A DNA stretch of 64,000 nucleotides, from assembly GCA_965178125.1 (NCBI GenBank), contig OZ237759.1, positions 496,001 through 560,000 of the forward strand, given 5' to 3'. The translations under genes were made by a program, and so were the position numbers. Origin of the DNA: Bilabrum cf. latius (taxonomy: Eukaryota). The notes beneath the pieces were generated by a model, which was given only the letters and a program-made list of their open reading frames with translations, was not told the origin of the DNA and did no database searches. This document shows, one piece after another, positions 23,719 to 50,100 of the stretch; the stretch's first letter is position 1; every line of letters starts with the position of its first letter.

Positions 23719-23751
<33 letters not shown>

Positions 23752-24996: not shown

Positions 24997-25028
<32 letters not shown>

Positions 25029-27432: not shown

Positions 27433-29115
27433 TTACGGGCTACCGTCCACGAGGATCTGCGCCACCTTGGCTCTCGTCTCCATCACGGCCACGGGGTCTT
27501 CCTAAAAGTCCTTCGGGCCCTTCACCACCTCCTGAGCCAGCTGTGCCACCATGGCGGGGTTCTTATTGGCAGCGAGCTTCAGCAGCTCCACGTCCTCCAG
27601 CCCGTCCCTAATGGTCTCGTACCGGATGGAGGAGATCGGGCCGTCCACGCCGGGCATGATGAACGACCCGTCACCGTTCGCGAACAAGTCTTGACGCGGA
27701 TACCAGATAAAGTTGGCGGCATCCCACTGCAGCAGCCTGGGGTCGTTCTTGACGTTGCCGTCGGCCGGTGCGAGCGGGCGGGCGAACCCGTGCGGTAGCG
27801 GATACGTCACGCCTACATCGTTCACGTAGCCGCTCACGAATGACGGATACGGGCCCCAGTTTCTCCATATATCAACGCCGTAGTACAGCATGCCAGTGGC
27901 ATGGTTCTGCCACGACAACCAGAAGAGCTGCCTAACCTGCGCCAGCGGTCGCTCGATGAACGTGTTCAGGTAACCCGCATCAGTTGGATTTACGCACCAG
28001 TACTGCCAGTACTCGTGACCCGCTGCCACCCACCGCTGCCGCATGGTTTCGTTGTGCGACTAGTACTGCAGGACCCAGATGTCCACCGGGAGATCGTCAG
28101 GCATCTCGGGCCAGTTGAGCACCGCCATCGTGCGCACCTCCGGATAGGCCTTCTTCATGGCTCCGAAAAGCTGCCTCACCTAGGGCTCGCACGAGATCGG
28201 ATTCTCGTCGAAGCCATACGCGATCAGCTTGTCCGACAGCCCCTTTGCCCGCATCGCCTCCACAGTGGGCTTCACTAGGGCCAGCATCGCGTCCACGTAC
28301 GCCTGCGAGTAGTTCGCGCACGACCCCTACACGCCTCCCGTGTGCGCGCGGCGGGGGGCCGGCTCTCCAGTGAGGGCCTGGGGCACGTTCTACACGTCGA
28401 TGAGGTTGAGGTGCCGGGCACCAAGAGAAGCCAGAAGCTCCAAGGTGGCGGGATCCCGCGGATGAGAGAGGTATACCATGTCTCCCTGCATGCGATGGTC
28501 CTGCGTGAACCGCGCCCACTGCTCCTGGACCGGCATGGGGGTGACACTGGAGCCGTTGCCGTACAGTCTGTTGATGTCTCCATCCTCCAAGCCAATCTGA
28601 AATGAGTTGCCGTATGCTTTCGGGTCCGAGGCTTGCGGAAGGAGGGCTGGGAGAACGACAACATTGATTTGCATGGCTCCGACTCCCTCTGCAAATAGCT
28701 GCACAGGGTACTTTCCGGGCTATGCATTAGCCCATGGCTTGAATGAAACCCAGAGAGCCTGAGGAGCCCCATACATGACCGGAAATGTGTAGTTTCCGCC
28801 GCTTGGCAGCGTTGACTTGGGCTACAGCAAGGGCTCAGCATGCCAACCGGAGTTGCTACCGGCGTATAGCGATGTGTACTGCGTGTACACGAAGCCAACT
28901 CTAGCAACCTACATGTCAAAGGCTTCGTTAGGGGCCGTGAAATTCACAGTGGCAGTCCCAGTGACTGAAGGCTCGAATAGAAGCTGTACCGGCTCAGTCT
29001 CGTTCTACAGCGCGTAAACGGTCGTTTCTGCTCCAATTCCAATGTCTGCACATGTATCATTGAGACTGTATTTCAGCAGGGTTGGAATAACGCACGCGAC
29101 CGAAAAAGCCACCAT
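27433..29115 (-). CDS. Glycoside hydrolase family 123-like / DUF4091 protein (~560 aa, intronless)
   Basis: Single frame from ATG 29115 to TAA 27435-27433 with TAG read as sense. Motifs include AL[TAG]NETEPVQL, QALWVSF..A[TAG]PGKY, YGFDE (putative catalytic DE), GMLYYGVDIW and NGDGSFIMPG..GPISSIRYETIRDGLEDVELL. The start could be further upstream (ATG 29256). Confidence 0.8.
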
Positions 29116-29557
29116 GTTGGATCCCGGATTGTCCGGCTAGCCAGGTTTTGCATTTGTGCGGAACCAACTGCCAGTGCTCGCGCCGCGGCGCCACTCATCC
29201 GGCAGTGGGCCGCACTGATCTTGCCGTCCGGGAGAGACGACCGCGTCTCTTTGCATGCGCGACAATGCATGCCTCTTCAGATACTTATACCAAGGGAGTG
29301 TGTGATGCTTTGGACGAAAGACTGAAAGTAGGAGGGGTGGTGAGCCGGCGCACCTCGCGGCATGCTCGAGCCTTGTCTGAGCTGGGAGATTTATTGCTCT
29401 CTATTGTTGTCGATCTCATTGTAGACATAGACATAGCTATAGAAATCTTGATTCGGGACAGGGGCAAGCAGGAGGACATCCGGGTGAGTCACATGCAGGG
29501 CTCGAGCTAGGTCGCACAACGGAACCTGCAGCAGGGTAGCGCACATCGAGTCGCTTG

Positions 29558-29839
29558 CAGCCCTGACTTGCCACGGGACCCACCGGGTGCTACCCAGCCC
29601 TGACTTGCCACGGGACCCACCGGGTGCTTCCCAGCCCTGACTTGCCACGGGACCCATCGGGTGCTACCCAGCCCTGACTTGCCACGGGACCCATCGGGTG
29701 CTACCCAGCCCTGACTTGCCATGGTACCCATCGGGTGCCACCCAGCCCTGACTTGCCGTGGAACCCATCGGGTGCTTCCCAGCCCTGACTTGCCACGGGA
29801 CCCATCGGGTGCTACCCAGCCCTGACTTGCCGTGGTACC
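29558..29839. repeat. 37-bp minisatellite, ~7.6 tandem copies (CAGCCCTGACTTGCCACGGGACCCATCGGGTGCTACC)
   Basis: Units start at 29558, 29595, 29632, 29669, 29706, 29743, 29780 and 29817. There are few substitutions and no spacers. Confidence 0.95.
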
Positions 29840-30188
29840 GAGCGAAACCATTATTTTCATTCTAGAAACAGTTTCGCAGGACCTCGCACTTGCCCTCACC
29901 CTGGTCATGTTTCAGCTGTCCGTCCTTCCGGCTTACGAGAGCTGGTTTGCATTTATTCCCGTACCCGCCGCTTCTGGTATTGTTAATACCTCATCAACTA
30001 TTATATCATTATCTAAGCCCTTCTCCTTATCTCCACTGCGCCCGCGTCTTGTCGATTAGCCCAAGCACTGCGTTCGGCGCGCGACTTCAGCCAACCCAGG
30101 TGCGAGCTCATCACGAGCGATTAGCATTAGTCCAAAACCATCACCGACCATAAGACCTGGGATCCGAATTCGCTGAAGCGGACACGGC

Positions 30189-32042
30189 TCAGCAGTCGTC
30201 GCACTCCGTTCCGTATGCCACTTGGCACACAAAGTCCATCCAACCCACTGCAAACTCCACGGGGGCCAGGAAGAGCTCAAAGATGTCCATGACAGCACAC
30301 CCGCACCAGTCCCTTTCGCAGTCCTCAATCGCCGCTCCGCAGCATTCTTCATCTTCACAAATAATGCATGGCATGCATACTAACATGAACGGCGTCAGCA
30401 ATACCATGCTCACCATTATGATGAAGACAAGAAGCAGCTGAATGATTCTGCGCGGGATCCACGGTGAAAACGGAACGAAATACCAACGCATCATATTCAT
30501 CCAGGCACGTCTCATGCGCAACAGCCTAGGCGAGAGGTGTGCAACGCAACTCACGGTGCCAGCACGAACCACAGAGGCCACAATGACCTGCAGCAAGCCA
30601 TTCGAGCTTCATGCGTCGCTGCGTCTGCCTCGATCTGAGCGTCTGTCCGGAACCGGCTCCTTGCCGCTCCACCAGTCATCTGCATGCCCGGACAGCCCCG
30701 CGGATTGTTCATGCTAAAGTGCTGCCCGACAGATTCAGTGGCCCCGCGACCGATGCGTCGCGTGCACAGCCAGCAGAATTCAACCCCGCAGCGGCACGTC
30801 ATCTGCGACTCATCTTAGAAACATTACACTACAATAAGTGCGCAGCGAACACAGCAAATGAAGCAGTATATTAAACAGATTGTGTGGGCTCACGTGGTTG
30901 CAACCTGCAAGAGTATCGTACAAGCAAATGGCTCCAGATGCGGTGAATGGCTTGTTGGGGCTGTACCGCACACGTCACCACATAGTAACTGACAAGGGCA
31001 AGTGCAGCAAGTTTCTCACCTGATCGCTTGTTCACATGCAGCCCGCACCCGGGGCATTCGCACGTAGTGCGGCTTAGCACCGAATTGCTTGCCTGCTCTG
31101 CGCGGACCGACCGTCGCAAGTACTGGTCGCACGTCTCCTTGTCGGGGTCGTGCTGCGACCCATGGTGGAAGCAGTACTTCGTGCTACAATTTGAGCACAG
31201 CATCTTCGGCGATGTTTCCGGATTGCCCTCATTCAAGAAGCCGCACTTGGGACACGCCGCGTGCTTCCCCGACTGCTGCTTGGCGAACCGGCTGTACCTC
31301 TGGAACAGAGGACCCTCGGCCCCCTCGGGGTCGATGGCCGATACGTCCAGGGGCGAGAAGGGAGCCTGGCACTCGTCCCCGATGGGACACGTCATCTCCC
31401 GGATGGCTCCTCCCCCCGACATGTAAGCAGACACGTACCCGCGCATGCACTGCTTGCACACGACGTGGGTCGCATCGGGGCAGGCGCGCAGGTGATACCC
31501 GTCAGGCTCGGGCAGGTTGCCGAAGCAGATTGGACTGCAAATACAACAACAAGAGAGTATTACATAGCAAGCTGGTGTCTGCAATAGCAACGCATTTGAG
31601 ATGCTTGATACTTCGAAAACACAACGACGTTGGATCGACCTCACCAAAGGAATGTATTGACCGGCTCCTAGGTAAAATCTTCAGCATTCTACCGATGAAT
31701 CAAAGAGCGGATAGAACTAGTCAAGAAAATGCGCCTACGGCTTCCCGTGGCCGCATGTCCCGCAGAGTCGCTGCTTCTGGTGCTGCCGCTACTGGTAGCA
31801 CGCTAGAATCCAGCAGCATATGCAGCACTAGGCGCTGCTGCAGCACCAACGGGAACCCGCGGGGCACTGCCACTTGCTGCTGTTCCATACGCAAGGTTAG
31901 CTTGGGGGGCATCGCCTGGGGTACTTGCACCTTGCCCAGCAGCACTCATTCCATCTCCAGTGCCTGGGGCAGATCCCCATTCAGCTATAGATGCAGCTAC
32001 ATATGCACGAGATTCTTCACTATTCTCTCTGTAGAAAGACAT
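30189..32042 (-). CDS. RBR-type (RING1-IBR-RING2) E3 ubiquitin ligase with C-terminal hydrophobic segment, paralogue 1; exons 32042-31645, 31534-31020, 30904-30894, 30802-30555, 30447-30189
   Basis: RING1: CPICF...C...HVVCKQC...CPIGDEC. IBR: CPKC...C..C..KYCFHH...H. RING2: CPGCGLHVNKRSGCNHMTCRCGVEFCWLC. All introns are GT-AG with consistent phases; TGA stop. Confidence 0.88.
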
Positions 32043-32134
32043 GAAATGGGTTAGCAAGCGGCGTGAATGTGTTTTCTTTGACTTTTCCGTGACAATTATA
32101 AACCGGAAATAGCATGTGCCACACTGGTCGCCAG

Positions 32135-32689
32135 CAGACCCCGGCGCCGGGGGGGGGGAGGCGCCGGATGCCGGGGGCCCCGGCGGTCCCCAGGAAGGGC
32201 CGATCGCCGCCCCCCCCCCCAGATCTCGTCCCACATTGCGCCAATTGAATAAATAAAGGCATATTTGATATTTACATACAAATAAAAGCTATATACTATG
32301 CTAGTATATGCTCACATCGCCTCCAAGATGATGTTCTGGAGGTGGTCTGATATCATTACGCAACTGCCCAAATCTGTATTGTTCCAGATTTACCATCTTC
32401 CGAGGTTGCGACCAGTGGATTCTCAATTTGCGCTGACGACGTCCTCCAGCTATCATCGACTCAATATGGGCGATACAAAAGGGAGAATAGGCAGTATTCA
32501 TTTCAAAGTTCAAACAAATACCATGATTTCCAAAATAGAAGCTGTTTCAGCCTGTAAGGCCAGAATCGGGGTGCATGACTGCAGCAGGAGGGGGGGGGCG
32601 CTGGCTGGGGGCATTTGAGGTCGATGGACACCCCCCTCCCACTCGTCACATGGCACCCAAACTGCGCCTCCCCCCCCCGCCGGGGTCTG
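32135..32689. mobile_element. 555-bp non-autonomous hAT-like DNA transposon (MITE)
   Basis: Perfect 12-bp terminal inverted repeats CAGACCCCGGCG (32135-32146) and CGCCGGGGTCTG (32678-32689). The 8-bp direct repeat GTCGCCAG lies immediately outside both ends (32127-32134, 32690-32697). It has inverted G/C-run subterminal motifs and an AT-rich non-coding interior. Confidence 0.85.
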
Positions 32690-32774
32690 GTCGCCAGAAG
32701 ACTGGGTGGCTGGCGAGGAGAGTTCTGTGCGAATCAGAAAGGGTACGCATCAACGCATTTATTTGCGAGCTTGT

Positions 32775-34061
32775 TCACCGAAAACACGCTTCTGCAGCAT
32801 CCACGATGAAGGCGAGCACTGTGGCAATCCCGGAGGAAACCATCGCCCCCTTTGTGTACAGCAGCTCTGTAGCCTCATCGATGGAGGGGATGGGGAACAG
32901 CGTTGGGATTGCTATGAACACAATGCCAGCGATCATGCCAGCCAGCAGAGCCACGGACCCGCTGGCAATGAATGTATCCACGAGCATTCGGGTGCAGCAG
33001 TTGGGCGGGGACCCTCGACTGCCCCCACTCGATCGTTTGTCGCCGTCCATGTACATGAGGCCCAAAGGCATGATAATAACGGCAAACACGTACATGGGAC
33101 ACACGAACAGGGGCCATGGTGGGTCCCTGCCCCCAAACAGGAAGCTGGACCGAAGGCCAGGCAGCAGCTCCTCCGCCAAAAACCCCGACACGATCAAATT
33201 GACCGCCAGATACGTCACGGCTGTGCTTAAAATTGTCGCCATGATCCCGGCGCCCGTGCAGCTGGCGCAGCAGCACACATCGTAGTCAGTATCGGGCTAC
33301 CTGCTGGAGCGCTCATCCTTGCCACCTTCCTGCGCCTGTTCGAATTTGTCCTGTATTCTTCTAGAAATGGCCGCAAAGATCCAGTTTAAGCTGACAGACT
33401 GAAATGTCACTGCGATGGCGGTCACGATTCCAATGGCCAGGTACAGGCCGGGCCGCGATGGTTCCCTGGCCACACCATACCCAACAGGCACACCCAATGG
33501 GATAGTGCCAGATGACCCATACACGAACTCACTCGCATCTGCGAGACACCTGTTGGTGGCGATCCCGCCGAACACAAACATGTTATCATCACTGGACGAA
33601 GACCCGGCTCGATTCCTAGGATCGTGGAGTGGGATGCTGTCAAGCCCAAGCGTGCCATCTTCCTCGCGATCCCAGCAAAGCACAGTAGTGCGATTTTCCA
33701 GAGACTCATCATTCACGATACCATTGATGATGATGGAGCTAAGGTTGCATTGCGGCTCAGACTAGCTAGTTGGAACAGAGAGCACAGCTGGCGTAGGGTC
33801 TCCTCGAGCCGTGAGATCGCTGCACTTCGGCAGTGTATATCCGTCAAAAGTGTGGACCTCAAGAAGTCTGATTTGCATTCCATACGAATTTTCTTGCCCA
33901 TGCAACGGCGCAGCAAGCACGTAGACTAGCGTCCAGACAGGGAGGACCGCAAAACCTGCTTTGGCTATCACACACAGAATTTGTACTACTGATATGCTCG
34001 TCGCGTCAATCTCACGCAGTACCTAACAAAACGAATCACAGCTATCATCCGACTATGACAT
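32775..34061 (-). CDS. Hypothetical multi-pass membrane protein (~428 aa)
   Basis: ORFs 33762..33971, 33297..33716 and 32775..33278 are in frame and joined by TAG. ATG at 34061, TGA at 32777-32775, about six hydrophobic segments. Confidence 0.7.
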
Positions 34062-34429
34062 GATGGCAAACGAAGTTGTAAAAAGCTTTCCAATCGCACT
34101 GAATAGCAGCTGATGCCAACAGCAACTCGAGAATCCGCTCCGAGTCAAATCACTCGTGCGTCGCAGGCCGCCACTGAGTGCGCTCGAGAATGCAAGCGGC
34201 GAAGGCTCTGCGCAACGCCCGAAGCATATACAGCAAGCTCACGCCGGTAAAACTGTGTGGTGCACCAGCTGCCACAATCAGTTGACCTATGCGGGCACGT
34301 GTGCTCGTATTCATCAAAGTCTACACAACCGAGCATCATCCCCAGCTGACTCCCAGGCATCGCTCACCAGGCTGTAGCAACACGAGCTCCTTGGCCGATG
34401 CAGCCCGAGGACCGTGCCCGAGCGTGCTT

Positions 34430-35656
34430 TCAACCCTTCGTCCCTTGCACCCTGATCGCCTGCAGGGAGCCCATCTCTTGCTCCAAGTGATACAGCCTGA
34501 CCATGGCAGCTGACAGGAACCCAATCACGTCTTCTTCTTGTTCTTGTTCTTGTTCTTTTTGTTCGCGAGAACCGCCCGACGCCTTCACCGCCTGCCCACC
34601 GGGACTAGCCTGCCGCCCCCTTGCCATCACCCGTGCAGCAGCCTCACCCAGCCCGACAGATCCAATCCCAATCTCAGCCCCGGCCCAGGCACCAGCTCCA
34701 GCCAGATCATTCCAGCCCCGAGCACCCGCTGAAATCGGCCATTCAGCATCACCCTGACGCTCCCAGCTCGGCTCGAGGCTGCCGCCATGCGCCGCTGACT
34801 TCGCAATGCCATTCGCATTCATGCTACCATCAGTACCAGTGGTTGCAGACGCACCCTAGCGGTTGCTGGCCCCTAGCCTGATTGATTGCTGGGATCCTGC
34901 TGACGCTGAGCGGGTCCTGCGACCCTGCATTGGCTGGGAATTCGAGCCTGAGCCAGATCCAGCCGGCTGAGCAGCTGCAGCACCATACCAGTGCTGCTAC
35001 GCTTGCCTACCTTGATACGCGCGCGATCTAGACGCATGCGCACTGCCGTGTGATGCACCTCCCGGACCGCCCCTGGCACCCACGTGCAACCCCACGGGCG
35101 AGTGAATGGCTCTCTTGCCACCCACGATCGAGCTTGCCGCGCTCGCCGCAGCACTCGTCGCACCGCGACTCACCCCGCCAAGCGCACCGCTCGTCACACT
35201 CGCCGCACTCATCGCCGTCCCCGCCCTGCTCTTGCCTGCCCGGAGAGCCGCCAGCCCGCCTCGTGACCGCGGGCCTCCAGGCAGCGTGAGTCCGGAAGCA
35301 GAGGACCACAGCCCGCTCCTGCTCCTGCTCCTGCTCCTGCCCGGGCTGTGGCCTTGTTGGTCTGGGTCGGAGGAGGTGGGGCGATGGGTACGCTCTTGTT
35401 CTTGTGCTGAATGATCGCGAGATGGAAGGCACGCCGCAGCGGGGCTGCCACCACCTCGGGGCCGTCTGCCAGCATCGTCACCAGCACCGTCGTGATCGCT
35501 CACATCGCCCTTGCGAGTGTCATGCCCGGTGGCTACGGCATGGTCTGCTGCACCTGCCTGCCCTTTTCCCTCAACGCGGTGTTCCCTCCCTGCCCTGTAC
35601 TCTAGTAAGGATCCGGTGCCTGTGCCTGTGCCAGTGCATGTGCCTGTGCCAGTACA

Positions 35657-35695
<39 letters not shown>

Positions 35696-38600
35696 ACCAG
35701 CTTGCGAGGTCGTGCTTGTGTGCACGGGCGATACGAATGTCTTGAAGGCGGAGTCTGCCTCAGGTGCCGAAACAGCCTCGTTTGGGCTCCTGATCGGTCG
35801 AACGGATCGATTTGAAACCACTGAGCTCACCGTTTGGTGTTGTTGGTCTAGCCTGCTTCTTGGAGCGCTGGGGCGGTGCATCCCATTTCTTGAAGACAGG
35901 GGCGGCAATGTCGACGACCTGGAGGAGGACGAAGAGGACGTAGAAGATGCCGAGGCTGAGGTCGAGGACTATGCGGCCGGGCCTTGCTCCAAACCCAGGG
36001 CAGCAGCCAGGCGGGCCCTGGGTCGACACAGCCTGACGTGGCGGGGTCCCGTGCCGTTCGACGCATCCATGCTTGCGTCATACCCTGATTCGAGCAAAGC
36101 TTCCCGTCGCTTACCGCCAGTCCTCTGGGTGCCCCTATCGGGCTAGCTTTCGCGGCTTCTACGTGAGCCCGGCTATTGGGCGGGCGTGACACTCGGGTCA
36201 ATGGCTGGCAGCGCAACACGGCGGGTGCTTCGAGTAGGGCCATCCACGGTCTCTCTCGCTTCCGGGCCATCCTGTGGACCAGGGGACGCGCTCGTCACAC
36301 CTACAGAGCTGGGGACGAGGTGCGTGGGTGAGTCAGAGGGCGTATCTGCCCTTGCCTACTGCTACTGCTGGAACTCGGGTTGGTCCTGCATCGCGAAATG
36401 CGATGTGCCTCCCACTTGGCCTCGTGCTGCGCTGGCGGCGCCCTTCGCACTGGTTTGTCCACTTAGCTACTTGTTCATTCTAGCAGGCTACGCTTCAACT
36501 TTAGTCTTCCTGTACTCCGGTGCTGCCCCCTACTGCCCCTTCGCGTGCGCGACGCCCAGCCCATGCCGCTCCCCAGGGGGGCCGCTACTGCCACTCTGAC
36601 CACCCTCCTGTGCTATGACTTTGGACACCGCTGTCTCTGGCCGCTCCCCTAAGAGCCGTATCGCAGGCGAGTCGGCGGACGGACCAAGCCCAGGCCCCCC
36701 ATCCGCATCCCTTGAGCCCCCCCTGGAGCCCCCCCTTGAGCTGGACCCCGCAGCGGCAGCGACCCGGGACCTTGGCCCGTGTGACGAAGATACCCTGCTG
36801 CTGTTGCGGAGGATGGAGCGGCTCCTCCTCTCCTCGACCCTGTGTTCTACCCTGACGTGGATCGATCCGATCCCAGCTGACTCTGACTCGCCGCGCTCAG
36901 CTGACTCCGCGCTGCCAACAGAGGACGCGTCAGCTCCGTCGGTTGAGGCAGCCACCAGAGCCAGCACGTCAAGCCCGCTTGAGGAGGGCCTCCGAAGCAT
37001 CATGTCAGCGGAGGATTGTTCCCTGGATTGGGCTGCATCCCGCTCGTCATCATGGTCGTCGCTAGGCAGTAGGAACTGCACCATGCCTACCTGCAGCACC
37101 CCGCCCAGGTGCCCCGGCCCGTCCGCCCCTTGCAGTGCGCTGTCGAGCCTCATGCTGCTGCGGGAGGCTCGCGAGGCTCCCCTGGACATCGATCGGCGGG
37201 AAGAGGATGATACCAAGGCAGATGCGGCGCTTGACGTGCGCAGCCAGATGGGCCGGCCCGCGCCTGTCTGGTGCCCTGTCGGGTTGTGCGTGTCTTCGCT
37301 ACGGCCCCGTGTGCCGCGGCTGTACCGGTCCACAGAGTGCAGCCCATTGCGGTGCGGTCCGCCCAGCCCGCTCGAGTTTCGGCTCACGGAGGTGCCGCGA
37401 GCTCTGGAGGCTTGCCTGGAGCGAACCCTAAAAGGAACGTTCGTCGGACTGAGCCTCTGCTCCCCTGCCTCTGCATCGTACCCCATGGGGGTGGACCACA
37501 GGAGCACGCTCCTTGGGGTGGCCCCGTCCCCCTGCCTGGACTGCCTCTGGTGTGACGAGTGCGGACGGAGGGCCCCAGTGCCTGCGCTGGACCTTCCAAC
37601 ATCCGCCGACTAGGATACCTCGCGAGTGTGACGAGTGGGGTGCAGTGCATGGTCACTCGAGTATTCGATGTGATCATGGGGGGGTCGCCACACAGCATCG
37701 TGCGATGCACCCGCAGGCCCAGCCTCCCACTACCTCTGCTCCTGAGCAGACCCAAGCCCATGGGTGGCATCACCATCTCGCTCGTCACCCGATTTCGAAG
37801 AAGCGCCATTCGACAGCAGCCCCATCAGCATGCTGGCAGAGCTGCTTCCGCTACCCATGGCATATCCAGAATCGGCTCCCTTTTCTTGACCCCCGCCCCC
37901 GTTCAAGTTTGTAGATCCTGCATCATCACGCCACTTCACGTGCTGAGTCTAATGGTGGTATGACGAGTGGTGGTGTGACGAGCGATGCCGGCTGGTGGAC
38001 CTCCCGACGATCCGCTGCAGCTCTGGCTCATGGCCCCCGTCTTGCGCCCACCTGGTCACTGGCGATCGGTCCCCGGATCGATTCCCACCACTACCAGCAA
38101 AACCAGACCCGGCATCATTACTTTTATTGGTTTGTTCCGAGTCCGTGAATCGCACCCTGTGCTTGGTGGGCTTGCTTCCTTGGTGACCCGCTGCCTAGCC
38201 CTCATTGCTTCCTTGGTGACCCGCTGCCTAGCTCTCATTGCTTCCTTGGTGACCCGCTGCCTAGCCCTCATTTAAGCCAGGGAGGGATGGTGGCTGGTGC
38301 TAGCGCTACTGCTACTGCCTACCCGCGGACGACGATCGGCTCGGTTTAGTGGCATCCCCCCCTTTCCCTTCACCCGGCTCTGTAAAGAACCTGCCCGTGC
38401 TACTGCCACCAGCTCCAGCCACGGATTCATTACCCGCGTGCAATGCACCCGCACCCGCACGCGAAGTGTCTGCAGGCGTTTCTGGCATGCCGTCGTGGCC
38501 TTGTTGTCCCGGATATGGCTCGTGCGGCCTATCGTCGAGGTAGGACTGATCGCCTGGCGCCTTGGGCTGGACCGCGGGGCTTCCGGAACTTGAGCTGGAG

Positions 38601-39037
38601 CTGGCTGAGCGCGGGGCGGAACAACCGGAACCGGAGCCGGAGCCGCTGGCGCTTAAACCACTGTTTTTTTGCACGGAGCTCTCAGCTGGTTGGTCGGGCG
38701 CGTGCGTGGAGCCGACAGGGACATCTGCGATGTGGAGGGGCGGCACCCCTTTGGCCGCGCTAGCGGGCAGCTGCAGGGACCGGCCGATTTCCGAAGCAGA
38801 GGGGGAAGGCTGTGGCATGACTGCGTGTCCTGCTGGAACAATCTGCAATTTTTTGTGCGGGCTGGACACTGCATAGTGCGAGGCATCGAGGCCCAGCAGT
38901 CGGGTTGCCGCTCGATTTCTAGGCATGTTTTGCTCCAGCGTCTGAACACGAGTGCCATACGGCGATACCTGGCCTCCACCCGAAATACGCCTCCGTTTCA
39001 TGTCTTGAATGCACTATTGGGTTTGTCGTTCTGCCAT
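34430..39037 (-). CDS. Large low-complexity Ser/Arg/Gly-rich hypothetical protein with short C-terminal coiled coil (~1,535 aa, single exon)
   Basis: ORFs 38312..39001, 36530..37507, 34997..35908 and 34430..34822 share one frame. I read the gaps and found only TAG. The frame includes a CAG CAG TAG CAG TAG run near 36356-36370 and ends at TGA 34432-34430. Confidence 0.78.
38172..38272 (-). repeat. 33-bp coding tandem repeat x3 (NEG-[TAG]-AAGHQGS)
   Basis: Units start at 38172, 38205 and 38238. Confidence 0.9.
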
Positions 39038-40940
39038 TAAACAAGTAGAGGAGCCTTTACGTTCCGCCGGAATTTGCAGAGCAACCCGAGACCGCTTTAA
39101 TCCTGCTGTACTATGGACCCGAGCCGACTAAACAGACGTAAATATATGTTTGTCAATGGCAGGAGATACTACGCTACCACTCGGGGTCTGACCAGCCTCA
39201 ACGAAACGCACTTTCCTTTCCATTATGATCGGATGCACCGACACGTCTGCACGCACCAACTGCGCTTAATTGGACCCAAAACTCCGATAAACTTCAAGAA
39301 ATTTGTACAGAGTCCCCAATCATACCTATTGGCTCGTTATTTACGAACATCTATCGCTGATCCAAAGCACTGCATTTTCTCCCCTTGAAACCGCAACTAC
39401 TGCCGCCCGGGGTACCGTCGACGATCAGAAAACTCCGCTTCTGCAACCAGAGCGTCTTGCTTCACGTATTAAGATAAGTAACAAGAATACGATGCAGCGT
39501 GAAAATAGCGAGGATGCAGTCGAATTCGTGACCGCCGCTGCTGCTGCACAACGCGCAAGCATTAATCACGGAGGGGTTGCTGCATCGCAAGCCAGTGCGG
39601 GCATCAGGGGACGTGGCGAGCACCACAGCATCGGAGATCCACTGAAAGCTTCCAATCACACCTTGCATGGTGCTGCTGCGCCAAGGGTTCCAGTCGGTGC
39701 TGGCTTTGCTCCGGCAGGCCCGAACCCGACACACAGCCAGAATCTGCCTCCCGTGCTTCGATCGGACAGCAGCGCTAGCACCTCCAGTACTCGCAGACGA
39801 GGACTTGGTGCATCAATTCGCAGTCTGTTCGGGAGGCAGCGTTCGCAAGACTCGTCGGGCGATCCTGTTGAAACGTTCCTGTGGTGAGCGATGCACCAGT
39901 GCCTGAGATTGGCACGCATCATTGCACTTACCACGACTCGTCGGCGAATTCAATTTATTATATTTATCGCTTCACATTGATAATATCTACCACTTGCACA
40001 GTCCGGTGTGCTTCGGCAACCTGCCCGAGCCTGACGGGTATCACCTGCGCGCCTGCCCCGATACGACCCACGTCGTGTGCAAGCAGTGCATGCGCGGGTA
40101 CGTGTCTGCTTACATGTCGGGGGGAGGAGCCATCCGGGAGATGACGTGTCCTATCGGGGACGAGTGCCAGGCTCCCTTCTCGCCCCTGGACGTATCGGCC
40201 ATCGACCCCGAGGGGGCCGAGGGTCCTCTGTTCCAGAGGTACAGCCGGTTCGCCAAGCAGCAGTCGGGGAAGCACGCGGCGTGTCCCAAGTGCGGCTTCT
40301 TGAATGAGGGCAATCCGGAAGCATCGCCGAAGATGCAATGCATTGAATGTAGCACGAAGTACTGCTTTCACCATGGGTCGTAGCACGACCCCGACAAGGA
40401 GACGTGCGACCAGTACTTGCGACGGTCGGTCCGCGCAGAGCAGGCAAGCAATGCGGTGCTAAGCCGCACTACGTGCGAATGTCCCGGGTGCGGGCTGCAT
40501 GTGAACAAGCGATCAGGTGAGTCGCGTGCATTGGAGTTTGAATGAGTGCAGTCATGTCGAGCAAGTGTATTACGAGCTGTGCTCGCTCGTTGCCGCTTTC
40601 GTACATGTGTGTAAGCATCTTGTCCGTTTGTATGAAATTTTATATCTACGCAGGCTGCAATCATGTGAGGTGGATGCATTGAATTTGCTGCTCGTCGCGC
40701 TGCGTGCTGCAATCGGCCGGTTTTGCTGGGCACTTGCTTGCTTCACGCTTGCTCTCAACTCCTCTCACAGATGACGTGCCGCTGCGGGGTTGAATTCTGC
40801 TGGCTGTGCACGCGACGCATCGGTCGTGGGGCCACTGAATCTGTCGGGCAGCACTTTAGCATGAACAATCCGCGGGGCTGTCCGGGCATGCAGATGACTG
40901 GTGGAGCGGCAAGGAGCCGGTTCCGGACAGACGCTCAGAT

Positions 40941-42563
40941 TGAACCTAGACTACAGATCAGATTTGTTCCTTCAACCACACCCATTGGCTCATCTTCACG
41001 GCTGCTGCAAACTCCACTGGTTGGCAGTTACCAAAAAGAAAAATTCCTGCCCCCGGTCCCGCGGACCCACTGGGCTTCACCCCGAACGACTGGTTCTTCA
41101 CCGGTCCACCTGAATGCGGTATTCATCTGACACTACGAATGTACACACCACTTTCCCCATGCACCCGACTGGCCTCGTCGCCACATGGCTTCCTGTTCCT
41201 GTTCCCCGCCCTAGGGACCGTGTGCTTTGCTCCCAGCATCGCCACCTTGGCCCTATCCTTTCAGCTTGCACGCGCCGGTCCTGGCCGACCTGCCGTGCGC
41301 CCCATCTGTCCACCCACCTGTTGGCCTTCTGCGTGCTGCTGGCCATGCAGTCCGCTGCCACCCGCGTCTCCCTCGTGCCTTGCACCTGGAGCCCCCATTC
41401 CTCCCGTTGTGTTCTCCCTGTTGACACCGCACTGTCGTCGCCTGTGCCGGTGTCCCCCTCTTCTTCTCCACCTCCTGTCCTTCCGCCTCGTCTTCCGTCT
41501 CACCTCTGCTCCCCGTTGCTTCAATCCTGATGTCCGAGTACATATAACATGAACCTAGACTACAGATCAGATTTGTTCCTTCAACCACACCCATTGGCTC
41601 ATCTTCACGGCTGCTGCAAACTCCACTGGTTGGCAGTTACCATTACTTCCATTACTTGCACACAGTTCGCGCTGCATGTGCCAGCGCGGCCGTCCACACC
41701 TGAGTTGGCTGGGACAGGTCCGTGCCGACCGGCAGGGGAAGGGCGCTGAGCGCGAACAGCGCCTCGTTGCAGTACCTGCGCACGGCCTTGGTAGAGGCCC
41801 ATCCACCGGCGCGCTGGATAGTGCCGTCACTGCAGCCTTGCCGGGATAGCGTGGAGATAGCTGTCACCCGAAGGCAGTGCCCGGTGAGGGTGCGCCCCTC
41901 GCTGGTGCAGCATCGCCGGAGCTCACGCGCGACTGTAGCTGACGTGAAGGCTGGTCCCTCATCGGCGAACAGGTAGTGCGATCCTGTGGGGGGCCGCTTC
42001 TCCACATAGTCCCGCAAAGTGCGGACGTTGGAAATGCCGTGACGCATCTGCAGCCATTCCAGCAGGATACGGAGCCCACAGAACCGCGCCCCTGTCACCG
42101 TGCCGGCCGCGTACCGGACCGGCTAAGCTGCGCTGAGAAGCAGCGTGCGTTTGTCCCTGCTCTTGTTCGGCCCCAACATCAGCTCGATGGACGTGACCGC
42201 CCCATCGCTTGTGCAGTTGACCACCATGAAGCCCCTGGCGAGGCCACGCTGCATGTCACTGGCATCAGCTCGGGTGATCTCGCCGAGCCGTGCTGCGGTG
42301 AAGAATGCGACCGCGCCGGCGACGCGTGCGGCATGCTGGCCCCGTGTGCCGCCGTTGGTTCCGAGCCAGCGTGCCAGGGCAGTGAGCTCCACGGGGTGCT
42401 TGCGGCCGCGGGCGGCACCGTTGTGTTCTCCCTGTTGACACCGCACTGTCGTCGCCTGTGCCGGTGTCCCCCTCTTCTTCTCCACCTCCTGTCCTCCCGC
42501 CTCGTCTTCCGTCTCACCTCTGCTCCCCGTTGCTTCAATCCTGATGTCCGAGTACATATAACA
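40941..42563 (-). mobile_element. 1,623-bp Ngaro-type (DIRS order) tyrosine-recombinase element with split direct repeats, lacking gag and RT/RNase H
   Basis: The boundaries are fixed by the empty site in the paralogues (GACGCTCAGAT|CGA). In element orientation: A1 42563-42418 (146 bp), YR coding region, B1 41642-41550 (93 bp), A2 41549-41404, a 370-bp spacer, then B2 41033-40941. There is no target-site duplication. Confidence 0.9.
41652..42557 (-). CDS. Tyrosine recombinase catalytic domain (~301-aa ORF)
   Basis: ORFs 42123..42671 and 41652..42098 are in frame across TAG 42125-42123. Catalytic motifs FFTAARLGEI (R), GPNKSRDK (K), GHCLR (HxxR), GGW and VRRY (Y) are present; TAA stop. The ATG lies inside repeat A1, so it may not be the ancestral start. 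Confidence 0.85.
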
Positions 42564-43428
42564 CGAGGCGGATGCAGCTGCGCATGAAGCTTGGATGGCT
42601 TGCTGCAGGTCATTGTGGCCTCTGTGGTTCGTGCTGGCACCGTGAGAGATGCTTATTGCATGAAGGCGCAAGTGCTTCCATGCTCCCCGGAGTTTCGTTC
42701 GGATCCTGCCACTAGACTAGGTCTGGCTACCGTTCTGCACAAGGGCACTGTCCAGCTGCGTTTATTTCTATGCATTCAATGCAGACTGATTCATTTGGTT
42801 TTAGGGATCGCCATGATATTTTTCATGATGCTGATCATTCCGCCGATGCTTCTTTGCTTGCCCTGCCTCTTCATGGAGGATGATGACTGCTGCTGTCCCG
42901 AACAGTGCCGCGAAGCCGAAATGCGGATGTGCGGAACTACGGTGGAGCCAATGTTTGAGTGGTTCTTGGCTCCAATTGACATAATTCCGGAGTACATGGA
43001 AGGGCTGTGCAGGGTGGCCTATGGCGACGAGTGTGCTGACGATTGCTGAAGGTGTGGATGGTGCTGCAAGCGGTGCGGTGTGCTGAGTCTCGTTCGAATA
43101 AAAAGGCAATATATGTGTTCGTTTGGCCATGTTGTCATGCGTGAAAGCAACATCATTACAAGCCGAAGTCATTCTGCGCGGTATTATCAATTGCGACCCC
43201 CTATGCTGCCCCTGTCCTGCTTCCCAGGCTGCCACTTGCTGCAATGGTTCTAGCTCGATCGCGAGCTTTATCGACACCCGCCAACATGCCCTTGCTCATC
43301 TTGGGTAGCTACCTGCCTCGTCATTGCACCCTTCTACCCGTTGCACATCAGGCAAGGCCTCATTCTTTTATCAGATAGCTGCTCCTCGCTCTGTCCTTCT
43401 CTTGCCTGGCGAGTGGGAGAGGAGCCCC

Positions 43429-43456: not shown

Positions 43457-44047
43457 AAGGGAAGGAGCAGCAGGGCCAAGAGGCCTTCTCGCTGTCGGCA
43501 GTCATCTCAATGTTCGCCTTGATATTCTCAGCCATGAGCCGGTTCAGTTCTGTCTTGAGTGTGCACAGCACTTTACAAACTTCATATCCGGATTACACAA
43601 CCGGAACGTGTATCATCTGACTGCCACTGCAGACTCTGGATTTCGGGAAGCAAAAATAGCAATACTCACAAGTAATGCGCTATTTTCTGGAGCGAGCAGA
43701 GCACGACCTCACGTGCCTCACAATCGAGTTTTTGTTCTGTAGCATGCACTGCTGACCCCACCCACCCAATCAGGTGCAAAGGTTCCCAAAGCAGCTTGGC
43801 AGGCATTCAGCCGGAATAACCCTCCCCACCGCCCCCTGCCCCCGGGAGGCGGTTCAAAAGACGGCTTAAGATTATCACCACAAAGCCACTGTATGAGTCC
43901 GGGTGGTTTCAATCTTCTTCTTGAAAGTTCCAGAGTGGTCTTAATCTTCTTCTAGAGTGGTTGCAACCGCGCACCGAAGCTCCGCTTCTGCAACCAGAAC
44001 GTCTTGCTTCGCGAATTCAAACTAAAGGGAAGAGATCTGTGAACACG

Positions 44048-45994
44048 ATGCAGCGTGAAAATAGCGAGGATGCAGTCGAATTCGTGACCGCCGCTGCTGC
44101 TGCACAACGCGCAAGCAATAGTCAAGGAGGCGTTGCTGCATCGCAAGCCAGTGCTGGCATCAGGGGACGTGGCGAGCACCACAGCATCGGAGATCCACTG
44201 AAAGCTTCCAATCACACCTTGCATGGTGCTGCTGCGCCAAGGGTTCCAGTCGGTGCTGGCTTTGCTCCGGCAGGCCCGAACCCGACACACAGCCAGAATC
44301 TGCCTCCCGTGCTTCGATCGGACAGCAGCGCTAGCACCTCCAGTACTCGCAGACGAGGACTTGGTGCATCAATTCGCAGCCTGTTCGGGAGGCAGCGTTC
44401 GCAAGACTCGTCTGGCGATCCTGTTGAAACGTTCCTGTGGTGAGCGATGCTCCAGTGCCTGAGATTGGCACGCATGATTGCACTTACTACGACTCGTCGG
44501 CGAATTCAATTTATTATATTTATCGCTTCACATTGATAATATCTACCACTTGCACAGTCCGGTGTGCTTCGGCAACCTGCCCGAGCCTGACGGGTATCAC
44601 CTGCGCGCCTGCCCCGATGCGACCCACGTCGTGTGCAAGCAGTGCATGCGCGGGTACGTGTCTGCTTACATGTCGGGGGGAGGAGCCATCCGGGAGATGA
44701 CGTGTCCTATCGGGGACGAGTGCCAGGCTCCCTTCTCGCCCCTGGACGTATCGGCCATCGACCCCGAGGGGGCCGAGGGTCCTCTGTTCCAGAGGTACAG
44801 CCGGTTCGCCAAGCAGCAGTCGGGGAAGCACGCGGCGTGTCCCAAGTGCGGCTTCTTGAATGAGGGCAATCCGGAAGCATCGCCGAAGATGCAATGCATT
44901 GAATGTAACACGAAGTACTGCTTCCACCATGGGTCGCAGCACGACCCCGACAAGGAGACGTGCGACCAGTACTTGCGACGGTCGGTCCGCGCAGAGCAGG
45001 CAAGCAATGCGGTGCTAAGCCGCACTACGTGCGAATGTCCCGGGTGCGGGCTGCATGTGAACAAGCGATCAGGTGAGTCGCGTGCATTGGAGTTTGAATG
45101 AGTGCAGTCATGTCGAGCAAGTGGATCACGAGCTGTGCTCGCTCGTTGCCGCTTTCGTACATGTGTGTAAGCATCTTGTCCGTTTGTATGAAATTTTATA
45201 TCTACGCAGGCTGCAATCATGTGAGGTGGATGCATTGAATTTGCTGCTCGTCGCGCTGCGTGCTGCAATCGGCCGGTTTTGCTGGGCACTTGCTTGCTTC
45301 ACGCTTGCTCTCAACTCCTCTCACAGATGACGTGCCGCTGCGGGGTTGAATTCTGCTGGCTGTGCACGCGACGCATCGGTCGTGGGGCCACTGAATCTGT
45401 CGGGCAGCACTTTAGCATGAACAATCCGCGGGGCTGTCCGGGCATGCAGATGACCGGCGGGGCAGCAAGGAGCCGATTCCGGACAGACGCTCAGATCGAA
45501 GCAGACGCAGCGACGCATGATGCTCGGCTGGCTTGCTGCAGGTCACTGTGGCCCATGTGGTTCGTTTTGGCACCGTGAGAGATGCTTATTGCATGGTGGC
45601 GGAAGTGCTTTCGCGATTGTTGGATTGCATCTGGGTACTCACAGTCTTGAGCCCGCTGACCGTTTTGATGAATCAATGCGCTTCCAGCAGCATCCATCTT
45701 TTTCTTCTTTTCCCCTACGTAGCCTACAGACTGATCCATTTGGTTTTAGCGATCGCCATGATGGTGTGTATGGTGATGATCATCCCGCTCATGATCATTT
45801 TCATACCCTGTCTCATATTCGAGGATGATGACTGCTGCTGTCCCGAACAGTGCCGCGATGCCGAAATGTGGATGTGTGGTATGACGATAGAACAAATCTT
45901 TGAGTGGTTCTTGGCTCCAATTGACATAATCCCGGCGTATATGGAAGGGCTGTGCAGGGTGGCCTATGGCGACGAGTGTGCTGACGATTGCTGA
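44048..45994 (+). CDS. RBR-type E3 ubiquitin ligase with C-terminal hydrophobic segment, paralogue 3 (intact, ~476 aa); exons 44048-44439, 44558-45072, 45210-45220, 45327-45574, 45730-45994
   Basis: RING1-IBR-RING2 Cys/His pattern. Exon lengths sum to 1,431 nt (477 codons) with GT-AG introns and a TGA stop. Confidence 0.9.
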
Positions 45995-47070
45995 AGGTGC
46001 GGACGGTGCATGCAACATGCAGCTATGTGCTCGTTTGAAATTGAGGACGACGTGGCTAATGTGTAGCCTCATGGTAGGCTTGGTGGGGACAGTCATACAG
46101 GCTGGACTCTTCATAACTTATTGAGCACCTAACCTGTTCTCTCCTGGCCTCAGCGGCAGCTGCTCGCGCTTTTTCGGCACCCATCAGCCGCAATTACCTA
46201 TCTCATTCTTAGATCTACGCATCAACGCCCCCGTGCGTGGTGCGCATCAGGCCAGAACTCAACTAGTTCCATGCGGCGGCTGCCAGTGCCCTTGCTATCT
46301 CTCACGCCAGCCTCATCAACCGGTTGCCAGGCTTGAGCTGGATACTTATGCGCCGGGTCGTGTCCAGCAGCTTACAAATGTCTTGTTGACCCTAAATACA
46401 CAGCGTCAACCAGGCATTTGGGCCTGTATTCCGGAAAACAGAGACCTCGAAGATGAAGCCTCGCTCGCATCGGGGCGTGAGGGGCTTGCACCTGTGAGGC
46501 TGAGGTCGCGCGCTGGGCACAGCGGTGATCCACCGTAGCGGGGGGTGATTGAGGTGCAGGTAGGGAGGGGGGGATAGAATGGAGGAAAGGTGGACGAAGC
46601 GGGAGACACGGACAGGGCAGGAATGTGGGAAGTGGGCGGTGGTGCCCGGAGGGGTTCTGGGCTAGGATGGGGTAGGAGAGTGTACCCCATACTCTGCCCT
46701 GTCTGTGTTACCTAAACACAGACGGGACGGCATCCCTCAATCCAAAAAAAAAAAGAAGGATTCTGATCCCGGATGCCGTCACCTCAAGGATCTGCAGTTA
46801 TCGAGTCTGACGCGGCGGGCTACAGCCGCAGGCCACATGCGAAAGCTACGAAGCACTTTGGTTTTTTTTGGCAGGTTTTGCGTTTTTGTTGTGTATGACA
46901 GTACAGATACCCATGGATACCCGTCTATACCAGGATCGGATTGGGCGGTCCGATGCCGGCGTAGATTTTGCTTTTGAAAATAGGCTATAGAAATATCCAT
47001 ACAAGTTGTTCCTAAAGCAATCTAAGTATCCAAATATGGGATACGAGAAAGACCCAACACTGGCAGTGTG

Positions 47071-47151: not shown

Positions 47152-50100
47152 TCATACACCGAGCAGACCCTTTGCGACCATGTCACCCCCCTGGGCCATC
47201 CGCCCTGTCACCGAGGTCGCTTTCGTGCTGCCATCGTTGATCATGAAGGGCTTGGCGCTGCACATCTTGGCGGCTACGCACATCTCCTCCGTGTCATAGC
47301 CGTGCAGGTACCTATCCACCAGCGTGTCCAGGGCCAGGCGCAGGGAAGCGCAGTGCCCCATGAGAATGGAGGGCATGCCCAGGTCCTGGTCCTCACCGAT
47401 AGACACCTTCTCACCAGCGGAAGTGAACTCGGTGGCGTAGCTCCACTTGCCGCCGGAAAGCCGCCCCGCGCCGTCAAGGCCGTGTGCCATGGGCCGCTGA
47501 GGCATGCCCACAGGGGATTGTCCCCGCCACCCCTGCCCTGCACCTTCGCCTGATCCTGAAGAGCTCGTGCTGGCGCTGGTGGGCGCAGTCATTGTGCTGC
47601 TTGTCGAGCTCGTCGTGGTGGTCGTGACAGTAGCCCCGGTGCGCATCTTCTGCGACTCGACCGAGCTGGCATCCACCGCACCTGTGCGCATCTTCTGCGA
47701 CTCGACCGAGCTGGCATCGACCGCACCTGTGCGCATCTTCTACGACTTGGAAGGGTCGCCATCAGCACCCGCACGCTCCTGCAACAGCACCCCCGGCGCT
47801 GTTCCCTGGAACTGTGCCCCCGACCGACCCACTCCGTTCCGCTGCCTGTACGCCTCTTGCACGTTGTCGATGGACCCGATCTCTGCCCTCCGGCCCGACT
47901 GCTCTGCAGGTGCCATCTCATCGCCTGAGCTGGGCTCCTCGTTCAGCGGAGGCAGAGGGCCGCCTTCGCTCCCCTGCCCGCTGCACATCTTCCCCACCGC
48001 GATCCGGATCGTCGCGACGGCCCTGTCTAGTTCAGACCTGGCCTTGATCCGTCTGAGCCTCCTGAGCGCCGCGTAATCGCTCTCGCCCCTGTACCTCTAC
48101 CTGCAGATCCTCGTGCCCGGCCTGCACGCGTGCGGCATCGGAGTCAGCCCCAGGCCACCCAGCACGTTCGACACGAACGAATGCCCGTGCTCATGCCGGC
48201 TCTCTGCCCCTGACTCTGCCCCCGATGCAGCTGCGGATCCAGATGACGCAAACCGCATGGCCTCCGCACCCTCCTCCTCTTCCGGCCTCTCTTCCACTGC
48301 GGGCCCCTGCATGGCCTCGTCCAGCGACCTGTCCATGGCATCCAGCGAGGACAGCGACCGCCTCGTCTCCCTGGAGCGTGCACGCTCCGACACGCTGCCC
48401 TTGCCGCCTGCCTGTGCTTGGGACTGAAGCAAACCCATGCCCAAATTGCTCAGCGCCCCACCGAGTGCCTTCGATGCCGCCATGCCGCCAGCCGCTGCCA
48501 GCTGAGCCTTCGGGTCCATAGCCCCACCACCACCGGCACCGGCACCTTGCTGTCCTGCTGCAGCCTGACTGGACCTGCCCATCTCGATCGCGCGCGACTC
48601 TCTGGCCGCCACCGCCGCTTTGCCCATCTCTTCCGCCCTCCGTCTCACGCCAGCCTTCTGCACATCCGGCGAGATCTCGTCCACGCTTCCTGCATCCTCT
48701 CCATCGGCCCCAGCGCCGCTTCCGACACCCGCACCACCACCGCCATTGCCTTGCGCATGGGCTTTGGCCAGACCCATGCCCAGCTTCATGAGATCTGCCT
48801 GTGGACTGCCGCCCCCTGGAGAGGACGAGTACGAGGGGGGACCTGCGCCCTGCTGATCGCCCGCCTTGCCGTCCCCTGCCTCGGACACGGTCACGGGGTC
48901 AAACTCGTCGAAGAGCCCGTCAGTGGAGTCGTTCGAGCTGCCCGAGCTGGCCTCCCCGCCCCCTGCCCTGAAGTAGCCCCTCAGCTGGGGCCCCTCCTTG
49001 GCGGGTGCGGGTGCGAGCCCCAGCTGGCTCGCGATGCTGCTGGCGGCGCCCAATAGTTTCCCTGCCAGTGCGGCGAATCCCTTCGGCGCCGGCTCTGCGT
49101 TAGTGGCCTACCCCGGCGGCAGAGGCACGGCAGGGTTCATCCTGGGCTCAGGGGATGGCCCCGGCGAGGGCGCGTCCAGAAGGATGCCCACCGCGGCGGC
49201 CTCCCCCGGCGACAGCGGCGCCCCCTCCGCCACGATGCCGTTGGCTTCCCTCACGTCCTCCCCCGAGATCTTCCTGACCTCCTGGCTGACAGCAACCGGA
49301 TCGTCGAAGGGGCCCGTGACAGGGGTGCCGCCTGCTGCGGGGCCCAGCCCCGACTGGTCCAGTGCGTCCTTGGCCGCGGACTTGAGGGCAGACCCGAGCA
49401 TCTTGCCGAAGCTGCCCTGACCACCACCACCACCAGTACTACCACCCAGGGCTGCGGGGACGGGCTTCAGGGGACCGGGTGAGCCGGCCGCCCTCGCTTC
49501 CACGCTGTTGGGCGTGGACCGCATGGCTCGCTCGTTGGCAGCCGGCGCTTCCTGCCCAAGGATGCTGGCCAGGTCAGCGTCATGCACCTGTTCCGGCGGA
49601 ATGGCGGTCCCAGGTGCTGGCGATGCCAGTGGGAACGCAGAAGGTGCGGCTTCCTACGGCTCCAGCTTGCTCTCTACCTTCTCCATGACCGCCTTCTTGC
49701 CGGGGAACGGGGGGATGGACGGCAGCACGATGCCCCTGGATGCCAGCTCGGCGGCTACCTGCTCCTTGGCGTACTGGATGGCGGCGTTCTTCTTCTCCCC
49801 GTCCAGCAAGTCGCCCTGCTGCTTTACCGCGGCGGCCATGTCGGCGTCGATCTTCTTGAGCTTGCCGGGCATCTCCTTGACCTCACTGGCGCTGATGCCT
49901 GCGCCTGCCTTGCGATCCAGGCCATTGGCCAGCCAATTGGCGGGAAGCGCAGCCCCTGCAGACTGCCCCTGAGGCTCCCCCCCTGCCGCGCCTGCCTTGG
50001 CAGAGGCGTGCGCACTGGCACCGCCTGCCGACGCAGAGGCCTAGGCGACGGCTTCTGCTGCCGTCTGTCGGCGGTCCACGCCGCCCACCGCGGTCACAGT

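Follow-up and report, generated by a model that had tools for sequence, protein, structure and literature searches.

Ngaro elements carry a tyrosine recombinase (YR) gene and split direct repeats in the order A1-[ORFs]-B1A2B2, a layout that the accounts drawn on here describe as common to PAT-like and VIPER-like elements (PMC8547959, PMC6681497). Four Ngaro types (1–4) of the order DIRS have been described in Cafeteria burkhardae (Hackl et al. 2021, PMC8547959), with lengths of 6.0–6.9 kb, 6385 bp being the commonest for type 1 (PMC8547959, supplementary file 1). The same paper lists truncated copies of 1362, 1996, 2659 and 2844 bp, a 5′-deleted multi-copy subfamily of 4.3–4.8 kb (type 2b), and isolated AB repeats scattered in C. 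burkhardae genomes, which its authors compare with solo LTRs (PMC8547959). An earlier examination of the present locus from its letters alone, hereafter the sequence-only reading, had pointed to these Cafeteria elements and their insertion into endogenous virophages, and as a statement about the literature this is correct (PMC8547959).

Two other systems bear on the locus. SIRE, a non-autonomous derivative of VIPER in Trypanosoma cruzi (Ribeiro et al. 2019, PMC6681497), is described as a short element that corresponds to the A2+B2 region of its parent (PMC6681497). Cryptons are described as DNA transposons whose only gene is a YR (Kojima and Jurka 2011, PMC3212892). The insertion analyzed here lies in a 64,000-nucleotide stretch of DNA (the window), and we read it, with a probability of about 0.72, as a defective, one-off deletion copy of a Ngaro-like YR retrotransposon in a host exon.

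Results

Insertion site and disrupted gene

The inserted element occupies positions 40941–42563 of the window (1623 bp), with its coding sense on the minus strand. The gene that flanks it has two paralogs in the window, at 43977–45610 and 30550–31537 (minus strand), which are 97–99 per cent identical to the left flank and 86–93 per cent identical to the right flank, and each of them preserves an empty site. The empty sites read ...GACGCTCAGAT|CGAGGCAGAC... at 45496|45497 on the plus strand and at 30633|30632 on the minus strand, and the filled site reads ...GACGCTCAGAT, then the element, then CGAGGCGGAT..., so that the element stands between T 40940 and C 42564 with zero bases duplicated or lost. 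The clean insertion without a target-site duplication (TSD) that had been proposed earlier is thus upheld to the base against both sites. The ends set by the empty sites are also the ends of the repeats, to the base, and this coincidence is strong internal evidence that 40941–42563 is one inserted unit.

Upstream of the insertion the host exon (40723–40940, plus strand) encodes ...CRCGVEFCWLC...RFRTDAQI, the C-terminal part of a paralog of a RING-between-RING (RBR)/IBR-type gene, and downstream of it (42564–42645, plus strand) come the final 26 codons and the TGA of the same host frame. The insertion interrupts an ATC codon and severs those last 26 codons from the frame, which is unbroken in both empty paralogs, where it reads ...CRCGVEFCWLCTRRIG...RFRTDAQI|EADAATHEA..LWPLWFVLAP*, and, with the element taken out, in the filled copy as well. 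The IBR family PF01485 matches the paralog at 30871–31680 with a weak E-value of 8.9e-4 that lies below Pfam's cutoff. One of the three paralogous RBR/IBR-type genes carries the element inside its final coding exon.

Gene content of the window

Among the 150 open reading frames (ORFs) of at least 150 aa in the window, seven have Pfam matches at E ≤ 1e-5. These are a fn3/purple acid phosphatase-like protein, a small subunit of RFC, COQ5, a GH123 protein, the PF00589 recombinase of the element, an FtsX-like protein and a sterol-sensing/Patched protein; the six outside the element belong to ordinary cellular families, no virophage gene is found among the Pfam-matched ORFs, and elsewhere the window resembles ordinary nuclear DNA of a eukaryote. 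Reverse transcriptase (RT) and RNase H (RH; PF00078, PF17919) match 0 of the 150 ORFs. Within the element PF00589 is the sole Pfam match, in agreement with the earlier observation that gag and RT/RNase H are absent, and there is no room for a gag-like ORF1, as the interval of 775 nt between B1 and A1 is entirely recombinase. No tRNA genes were found in the window, and Rfam gave no match in 40500–43000.

Repeat structure and the internal junction

On the minus strand the parts of the element follow one another in the order A1-YR-B1-A2-B2, the split direct repeats of the Ngaro layout. A1, the 5′ terminal repeat in the sense of the recombinase, is 146 nt long (42418–42563, minus strand) and is followed by a recombinase remnant of 763 nt (41655–42417, minus strand; PF00589) and by B1, the 93-nt internal copy of the 3′ terminal repeat (41550–41642, minus strand), which adjoins A2. 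The proximal part of A2 that is common to A1 measures 146 nt (41404–41549, minus strand), and between this core and the 93-nt 3′ terminal repeat B2 (40941–41033, minus strand), whose outer edge is set by the empty sites, lies a segment of 370 nt that we call U (41034–41403, minus strand). Together these form an A2-B2 unit of 609 bp (40941–41549, minus strand), which reads B-U-A on the plus strand.

The two B copies are identical (93 of 93 bases, 40941–41033 versus 41550–41642), and the two A copies differ at one base (145 of 146 identical, 41404–41549 versus 42418–42563), position 41482 being T and position 42496 C. A single difference in 239 nt of repeat argues for little time since the insertion or the last conversion, in keeping with the young age already suggested for it. 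A2 stops at 41549 and B1 begins at 41550 with no spacer, and the internal junction, CATATAACA|TGAACCTAG at 41549/41550, is therefore the same as the ends of the element joined to each other, that is, a circle junction.

U has no second copy within the window and no Pfam or Rfam match. It is most simply the remainder of a 516-nt A repeat that was lost from A1 by deletion; if 41034–41403 is counted as A, then A1 is shorter than A2 and retains 146 of the inferred 516 nt. The three bases CCG open both A copies, and the CCG at the 42418 breakpoint may represent microhomology.

The recombinase frame

An ATG stands 6 nt inside the terminus (42557–42555, minus strand), as the sequence-only reading had it, but the intact ORF of 301 aa that was thought to follow is interrupted. 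The frame encodes 144 residues and then, in the standard code, a TAG at codon 145 (42125–42123), beyond which the same frame continues to 41655. Its 301-residue read-through, with X at the TAG (P0001), matches PF00589 with E = 4.5e-9 and aligns locally with residues 287–326 of Cre, a span that includes HxxR, W and Y. The earlier claim that all catalytic motifs remain stands insofar as R90, K132, H227, R230, W253 and Y262 are all encoded, but the last four of them lie beyond the TAG.

The frame is also damaged at its other end. About 77 N-terminal residues of the recombinase are missing and 47 residues encoded by the A repeat stand in their place; these first 47 residues of the ORF are A-repeat sequence that is in frame by chance. 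Compared with an intact 332-aa relative (P0031), the 5′ truncation of the recombinase coincides exactly with the boundary of A1, as would be expected of the one-off internal deletion that had been offered as one of two earlier explanations. From the state of the frame, our reading is that the element would be unable to supply its own working recombinase.

At codon 145, P0031 has Q and P0002 has R, and an X1 contig over 42048–42188 carries the same TAG with 0 differences from the window. An intron at this site was considered and rejected because P0002 and P0031 align colinearly across it. Reassignment of TAG as a sense codon was likewise set aside, since the COQ5 and fn3/purple acid phosphatase-like ORFs of the window end at TAG; none of the conserved ORFs in the window requires read-through, which is consistent with the standard code without being proof of it.

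Given that the repeats are nearly identical and little time has passed, a new nonsense mutation within 763 nt would be unlikely, and the TAG was thus probably inherited rather than newly arisen. In agreement with this, a separate contig of 1677 nt contains the same gene with its N-terminus, split at the very same codon (P0003, ending ...LLLSAV, followed by P0032). The recombinase of the element is nearer to the intact P0031 than to P0003, and the stop that it has in common with the P0003/P0032 contig may reflect descent, conversion or coincidence.

Relatives of the recombinase

Relatives of this recombinase are few: a word-based protein search recovered 2 of 6960 candidates, and 29 are found at E ≤ 1e-3 in 1.84 billion representatives, 6 of them at 1e-10 or better. 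From residue 77 to its end P0031 is identical to P0001 at 219 of 256 positions in an ungapped alignment, and its residues 1–76 have no counterpart in the element. More distant relatives (P0004, P0039, P0007 and P0017) are 23–34 per cent identical to P0031. Across the family alignment the R, K, HxxR, W and Y positions are invariant or nearly so, and P0001 encodes them; an N-terminal block (G.TI..YV..V.R together with RL..iL..Y) is conserved in the distant relatives and in P0031 and is missing from P0001. Since the Atlas model of P0031 (residues 1–319) aligns with whole XerC/XerD-like recombinases, the missing part lies in the N-terminal DNA-binding half of the recombinase fold. In the Atlas, the nearest clusters consist of eukaryotic YRs that stand alone, some of them carrying ALOG domains.

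The chimeric N-terminus of A repeat and recombinase was found in no protein among cluster representatives of 30–527 aa, with 0 beyond P0002 and P0003 at 165–527 aa and 0 of 212 candidates at 30–164 aa. No fused RT-YR protein appeared in 8000 candidates, which is weak evidence. With YR alignments or P0004 as queries, no related locus emerged in viral or metagenome contigs, and a 22-nt pattern of the circle junction had 0 matches in metagenome, viral and genome contigs; a protein scan of the genome contigs returned only one weak bacterial relative (L001, 37 per cent identity over 51 residues). The distant YR relatives occur on contigs of 5835–6738 nt, those of the P0004 cluster measuring 6385, 6530 and 6738 nt; P0031 is encoded on a contig of 1776 nt and P0002 on one of 3390 nt.

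Depth in public sequencing runs

Four runs of one coded organism contain 64–80 per cent of the words sampled from the window, and Logan contigs were compared with it at 90 per cent likeness for the runs X1 and X2 (organism A), X5 (organism B) and X6 (organism C, presumed to be RNA). All depths are sums of contig means and not copy numbers, and recombinase copies that are less than 90 per cent identical fall outside the comparison, such that diverged YR-bearing copies may exist.

The single-copy flanks have depths of 224.9 in X1 and 220.2 in X2. Over the recombinase bins of X1 (41671–42335) the summed depth is 218–456, and over the A, U and B bins it is 6275–38871 in X1 and 2924–65233 in X2. 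A, B and 41034–41403 are thereby present at roughly 13–300 times the depth of the flanks and are joined to many different flanks: A1 has a summed depth of 13230–28490 in X1 against 225 for the flank, and U, at 22798–38871 in X1 and 10399–65233 in X2, is as high as A and B. This over-representation of U alongside A and B fits the earlier suggestion that 41034–41403 belongs to a longer A repeat.

The recombinase is traversed in X1 by single contigs at 41724–42077 (depth 238.7), 42048–42188 (103.2) and 42159–42420 (158.2), and in X2 a contig at 42274–42447 (depth 256.5, 0 differences) extends 30 nt into A1. From the recombinase side the reach across the 42418 junction into A1 is 30 letters in X2 and 3 in X1, and none passes the bridging bar of 31. 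The sequence-only reading had held that a unique junction at 42418 would mean a deletion after insertion and not a mobile mini-family; as far as the contigs show, the junction is at about single-copy depth in both X1 and X2, an outcome that counts against such a family. Separately, the 30-nt overhang in X2 is the k-1 length expected at the transition from a unique path to a high-copy repeat. X2 is uncovered over 41766–42145, which is a hole and not an absence, only 69 per cent of that run having been read.

The recombinase segment is not strictly unique. A form in which a single T takes the place of 41731–42222 is present at a depth of 96.4 in X1 and 86.4 in X2, and in both runs a contig departs from the recombinase at 42257 into unrelated sequence; by this divergence there is at least one other recombinase fragment or allele, in a more degraded state.

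What is over-represented in the element is the 609-bp A2-B2 unit (40941–41549), which is highly repeated in organism A and parts of which are repeated also in two other coded organisms (X5 and X6). The unit has a very high summed depth with differing flanks at both ends, the contigs being too short to contain flank, unit and flank together. The contigs placed number 464 in X1 and 288 in X2, and in the repeat parts they show many base variants and indels; internal deletion variants of the unit are frequent (for example, a skip of 53 nt at 41033–41085 with a depth of 1750 in X1 and 4096 in X2). Loose ends at 40939, 41553 and 42563 have agreements of 0.56–0.88 and indicate different flanks at both ends of the element, and X1, X2 and X5 all have contigs whose sequence diverges upstream of about 40939. 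The repeat parts are present in X5 and X6, with repeat bins of 6–139 in X5 against a flank depth of 2; no part of the recombinase is covered in these two runs, which is a matter of holes and not evidence of absence.

Joints that skip 1623 bases in X1, X2 and X6 were considered as a possible empty allele and rejected, as their diagnostic bases are those of the paralogs in the window (A at 42594 being the base of the 30.6 kb paralog and A at 42622 that of the 45.5 kb paralog).

Discussion

A probable deletion derivative of a Ngaro-like element

There is good reason to think that a single deletion accounts for the present form of the element. The parent may have been A(516)-gag-RT/RH-YR-B(93)-A(516)-B(93) and would have moved via RNA, after which a circular cDNA would be closed on the internal B1A2 template and recombined by the YR at its B|A junction into the target, leaving no TSD. 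A single deletion, with one edge at position 146 of the 516-nt A1 and the other near codon 77 of the recombinase, would then have taken gag and RT/RH together with 370 distal nt of A1 and ~77 initial codons of the YR, either by a template jump while the cDNA was being made or in the chromosome once the element had inserted. Such a deletion explains why the similarity of A1 and A2 ends where recombinase homology begins, and why U is without a second copy in the element and is nonetheless over-represented in the runs like A and B. If the element ever moved in its present form, both RT and YR would have been needed in trans. No relative that carries RT, RNase H or gag was encountered; that the family as a whole is one of retroelements we infer from its architecture and the lack of a TSD.

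The successful non-autonomous form of the family looks like the 609-bp A2-B2 unit and not the YR-bearing mini-element. That this unit is itself mobile, with AB minicircles resolved by the recombinase seeding TSD-free insertions to the order of 10^2 copies, we consider improbable. By that reading a circle with split repeats would bear two B|A sites in direct orientation, which the recombinase could resolve to give one circle with the ORF and one AB minicircle, each with a single integration-competent site. Were it true, the plus-strand arrangement [B-U-A][B-YR-A] would be a snapshot of a lineage of YR retroelements sliding toward DNA-level, Crypton-like mobility.

Other origins of the element

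A related origin for the element as a whole would be a product of tyrosine recombination at the DNA level, in which a 609-bp A-U-B minicircle and a 1014-bp A-YR-B circle formed a co-integrate, Crypton-like and with RT already shed. The plus strand can indeed be read as two units with the same ends, a TSD-free insertion is what integration of a circle by a YR should give, abundance of the 609-bp unit at many loci would be expected of self-integrating minicircles, and the clusters nearest in the Atlas are stand-alone eukaryotic YRs (some with ALOG domains). However, the layout is exactly the one that the retroelement model yields for Ngaro, PAT and VIPER in the accounts cited (PMC8547959, PMC6681497), and the recombinase of the supposed 1014-bp unit is cut where it meets the repeat, a sign of deletion and not of a natural unit. 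This origin would also need a source of active YR, and DNA circles and cDNA circles would look alike in the data. We judge this origin unlikely.

The second of the earlier explanations, that the element belongs to a mobile non-autonomous mini-family with an integrase of its own and RT alone borrowed, is very unlikely. It would account well for split repeats that are complete and nearly identical, for an intact circle junction, for six catalytic residues that are all still encoded and for an in-frame ATG so close to the terminus, and the form with the 492-bp deletion in X1 and X2 is a second one that bears a YR. Against it, the TAG at codon 145 precedes HxxR, W and Y; the ~77 N-terminal residues that are gone include the block conserved in the family, leaving no N-terminal domain; the interior of the recombinase and the junction lie near the depth of the single-copy flanks; and no protein with the chimeric N-terminus was found among the representatives of 30–527 aa.

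An assembly or sequencing artefact of the window at the 42418 junction or the TAG is extremely unlikely: a high-copy repeat adjoins the junction, a typical site of assembly collapse, and window and X1 contigs differ at 5 of 354 positions in 41724–42077, but the junction is reached with 0 differences by the contigs at 42159–42420 (X1) and 42274–42447 (X2) and the TAG is spanned with 0 differences by that at 42048–42188 (X1), the run contigs being independent of the window's assembler, though possibly from the same DNA sample.

Significance and comparison with known systems

The element belongs, as a defective copy, to a known kind, deleted Ngaro derivatives having already been described in Cafeteria (PMC8547959), and what it records is ordinary transposon decay by which the last 26 codons were cut from one of three paralogous RBR-type genes. 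Its modest value lies in ends that are fixed to the base, along with a circle junction and an empty site, for a family of YRs with few relatives (29 at E ≤ 1e-3). It also reveals an end-repeat unit that is far commoner in the lineage than any recombinase-bearing copy, and so raises the question of how such units multiply.

Of the Ngaro hallmarks, split repeats, an internal junction, a YR and insertion without a TSD are present in this copy, and RT/RH and gag are absent. Like the Cafeteria Ngaro elements, it has the arrangement A1-[ORFs]-B1A2B2 with no TSD, and its last ORF, immediately before B1, is a YR that has HxxR and Tyr; 5′-deleted or truncated copies and solo AB repeats are on record for Cafeteria. 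In contrast to those elements, it lacks gag and RT/RH, its YR is truncated and stopped, its A1 comprises only 146 of an inferred 516 nt, and it lies in a host exon, unlike the Cafeteria copies inserted into virophages. The nearest candidate relatives of Ngaro size, the P0004 cluster, are only ~32 per cent identical in their YR (as measured against P0031); one contig of that cluster, at 6385 nt, equals the modal length of Cafeteria Ngaro1, a coincidence of size and not a test.

With Cryptons the element has in common that a tyrosine recombinase is its sole coding capacity and that there is no TSD of the cut-and-paste type. The YR-only state is here put down to a deletion that took part of the YR as well, unlike that of Cryptons, and where a Crypton would have an intact stand-alone YR this copy has a 5′-truncated remnant fused to repeat sequence. 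Cryptons are also not known to have long split direct repeats that bear an internal copy of the circle junction. The comparison with SIRE concerns the 609-bp unit: there is no sequence relation between the two and abundance in the present case is a depth ratio alone, but the over-represented 609-bp part, like the short high-copy SIRE, is equivalent to the A2+B2 portion of a YR retroelement that has split direct repeats.

Genomic setting of the element

The RBR/IBR-type gene that hosts the Ngaro-like element is represented by three paralogous copies, all inside 16 kb of the window, and only the first of them (39430-40951 and 42564-43069) is interrupted by the element. The second copy (43977-46015), which shares 97% identity with the first across 1.5 kb, and the third (30550-31537, minus strand) are without it. 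The window also carries hexamer microsatellites of CACTGG (x11, 16702-16768), CCTGCA (x45, 23785-24055), CTGCAC (x10, 24560-24617) and GTGCCT (x13, 35616-35695), three of the four falling within long open reading frames (in the 18-25 kb region and in COQ5), together with minisatellites at 29558-29831 (37 bp unit, 7.4 copies), 38172-38272 (33 bp unit, 3.1 copies) and 47639-47747 (45 bp unit, 2.4 copies).

Variant forms and relatives of the recombinase

Runs X1 and X2, both of one coded organism, contain a variant in which the 492 bases at 41731-42222 are replaced by a single T, at a depth of 86-96 (a sum of contig means rather than a copy number). At 42257, again in both runs, a contig breaks off from the recombinase and continues in unrelated sequence. 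This amounts to a second copy or allele that bears the recombinase in a more degraded state. Internal variants of the repeat family are frequent in the runs and include a 53-nt skip (41033-41085), which both X1 and X2 show at high depth; a 147-nt skip (41356-41502) in X6, a run of another organism; and small insertions near 42495-42499, the site of the sole difference between the two A repeats.

Prokaryote genomes yielded no recombinase relative beyond a weak match in a Terriglobia MAG (L001, 8001-8144; 37% over 51 residues around HxxR...W), a resemblance that says little past general tyrosine recombinase kinship. Among closer relatives, the intact 332-aa P0031 has Q at the codon where the window copy has TAG (42123-42125). 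The relative represented by proteins P0003 and P0032 on one 1677-nt contig retains the recombinase N-terminus and is split at that same codon, which may reflect shared descent, conversion or coincidence.
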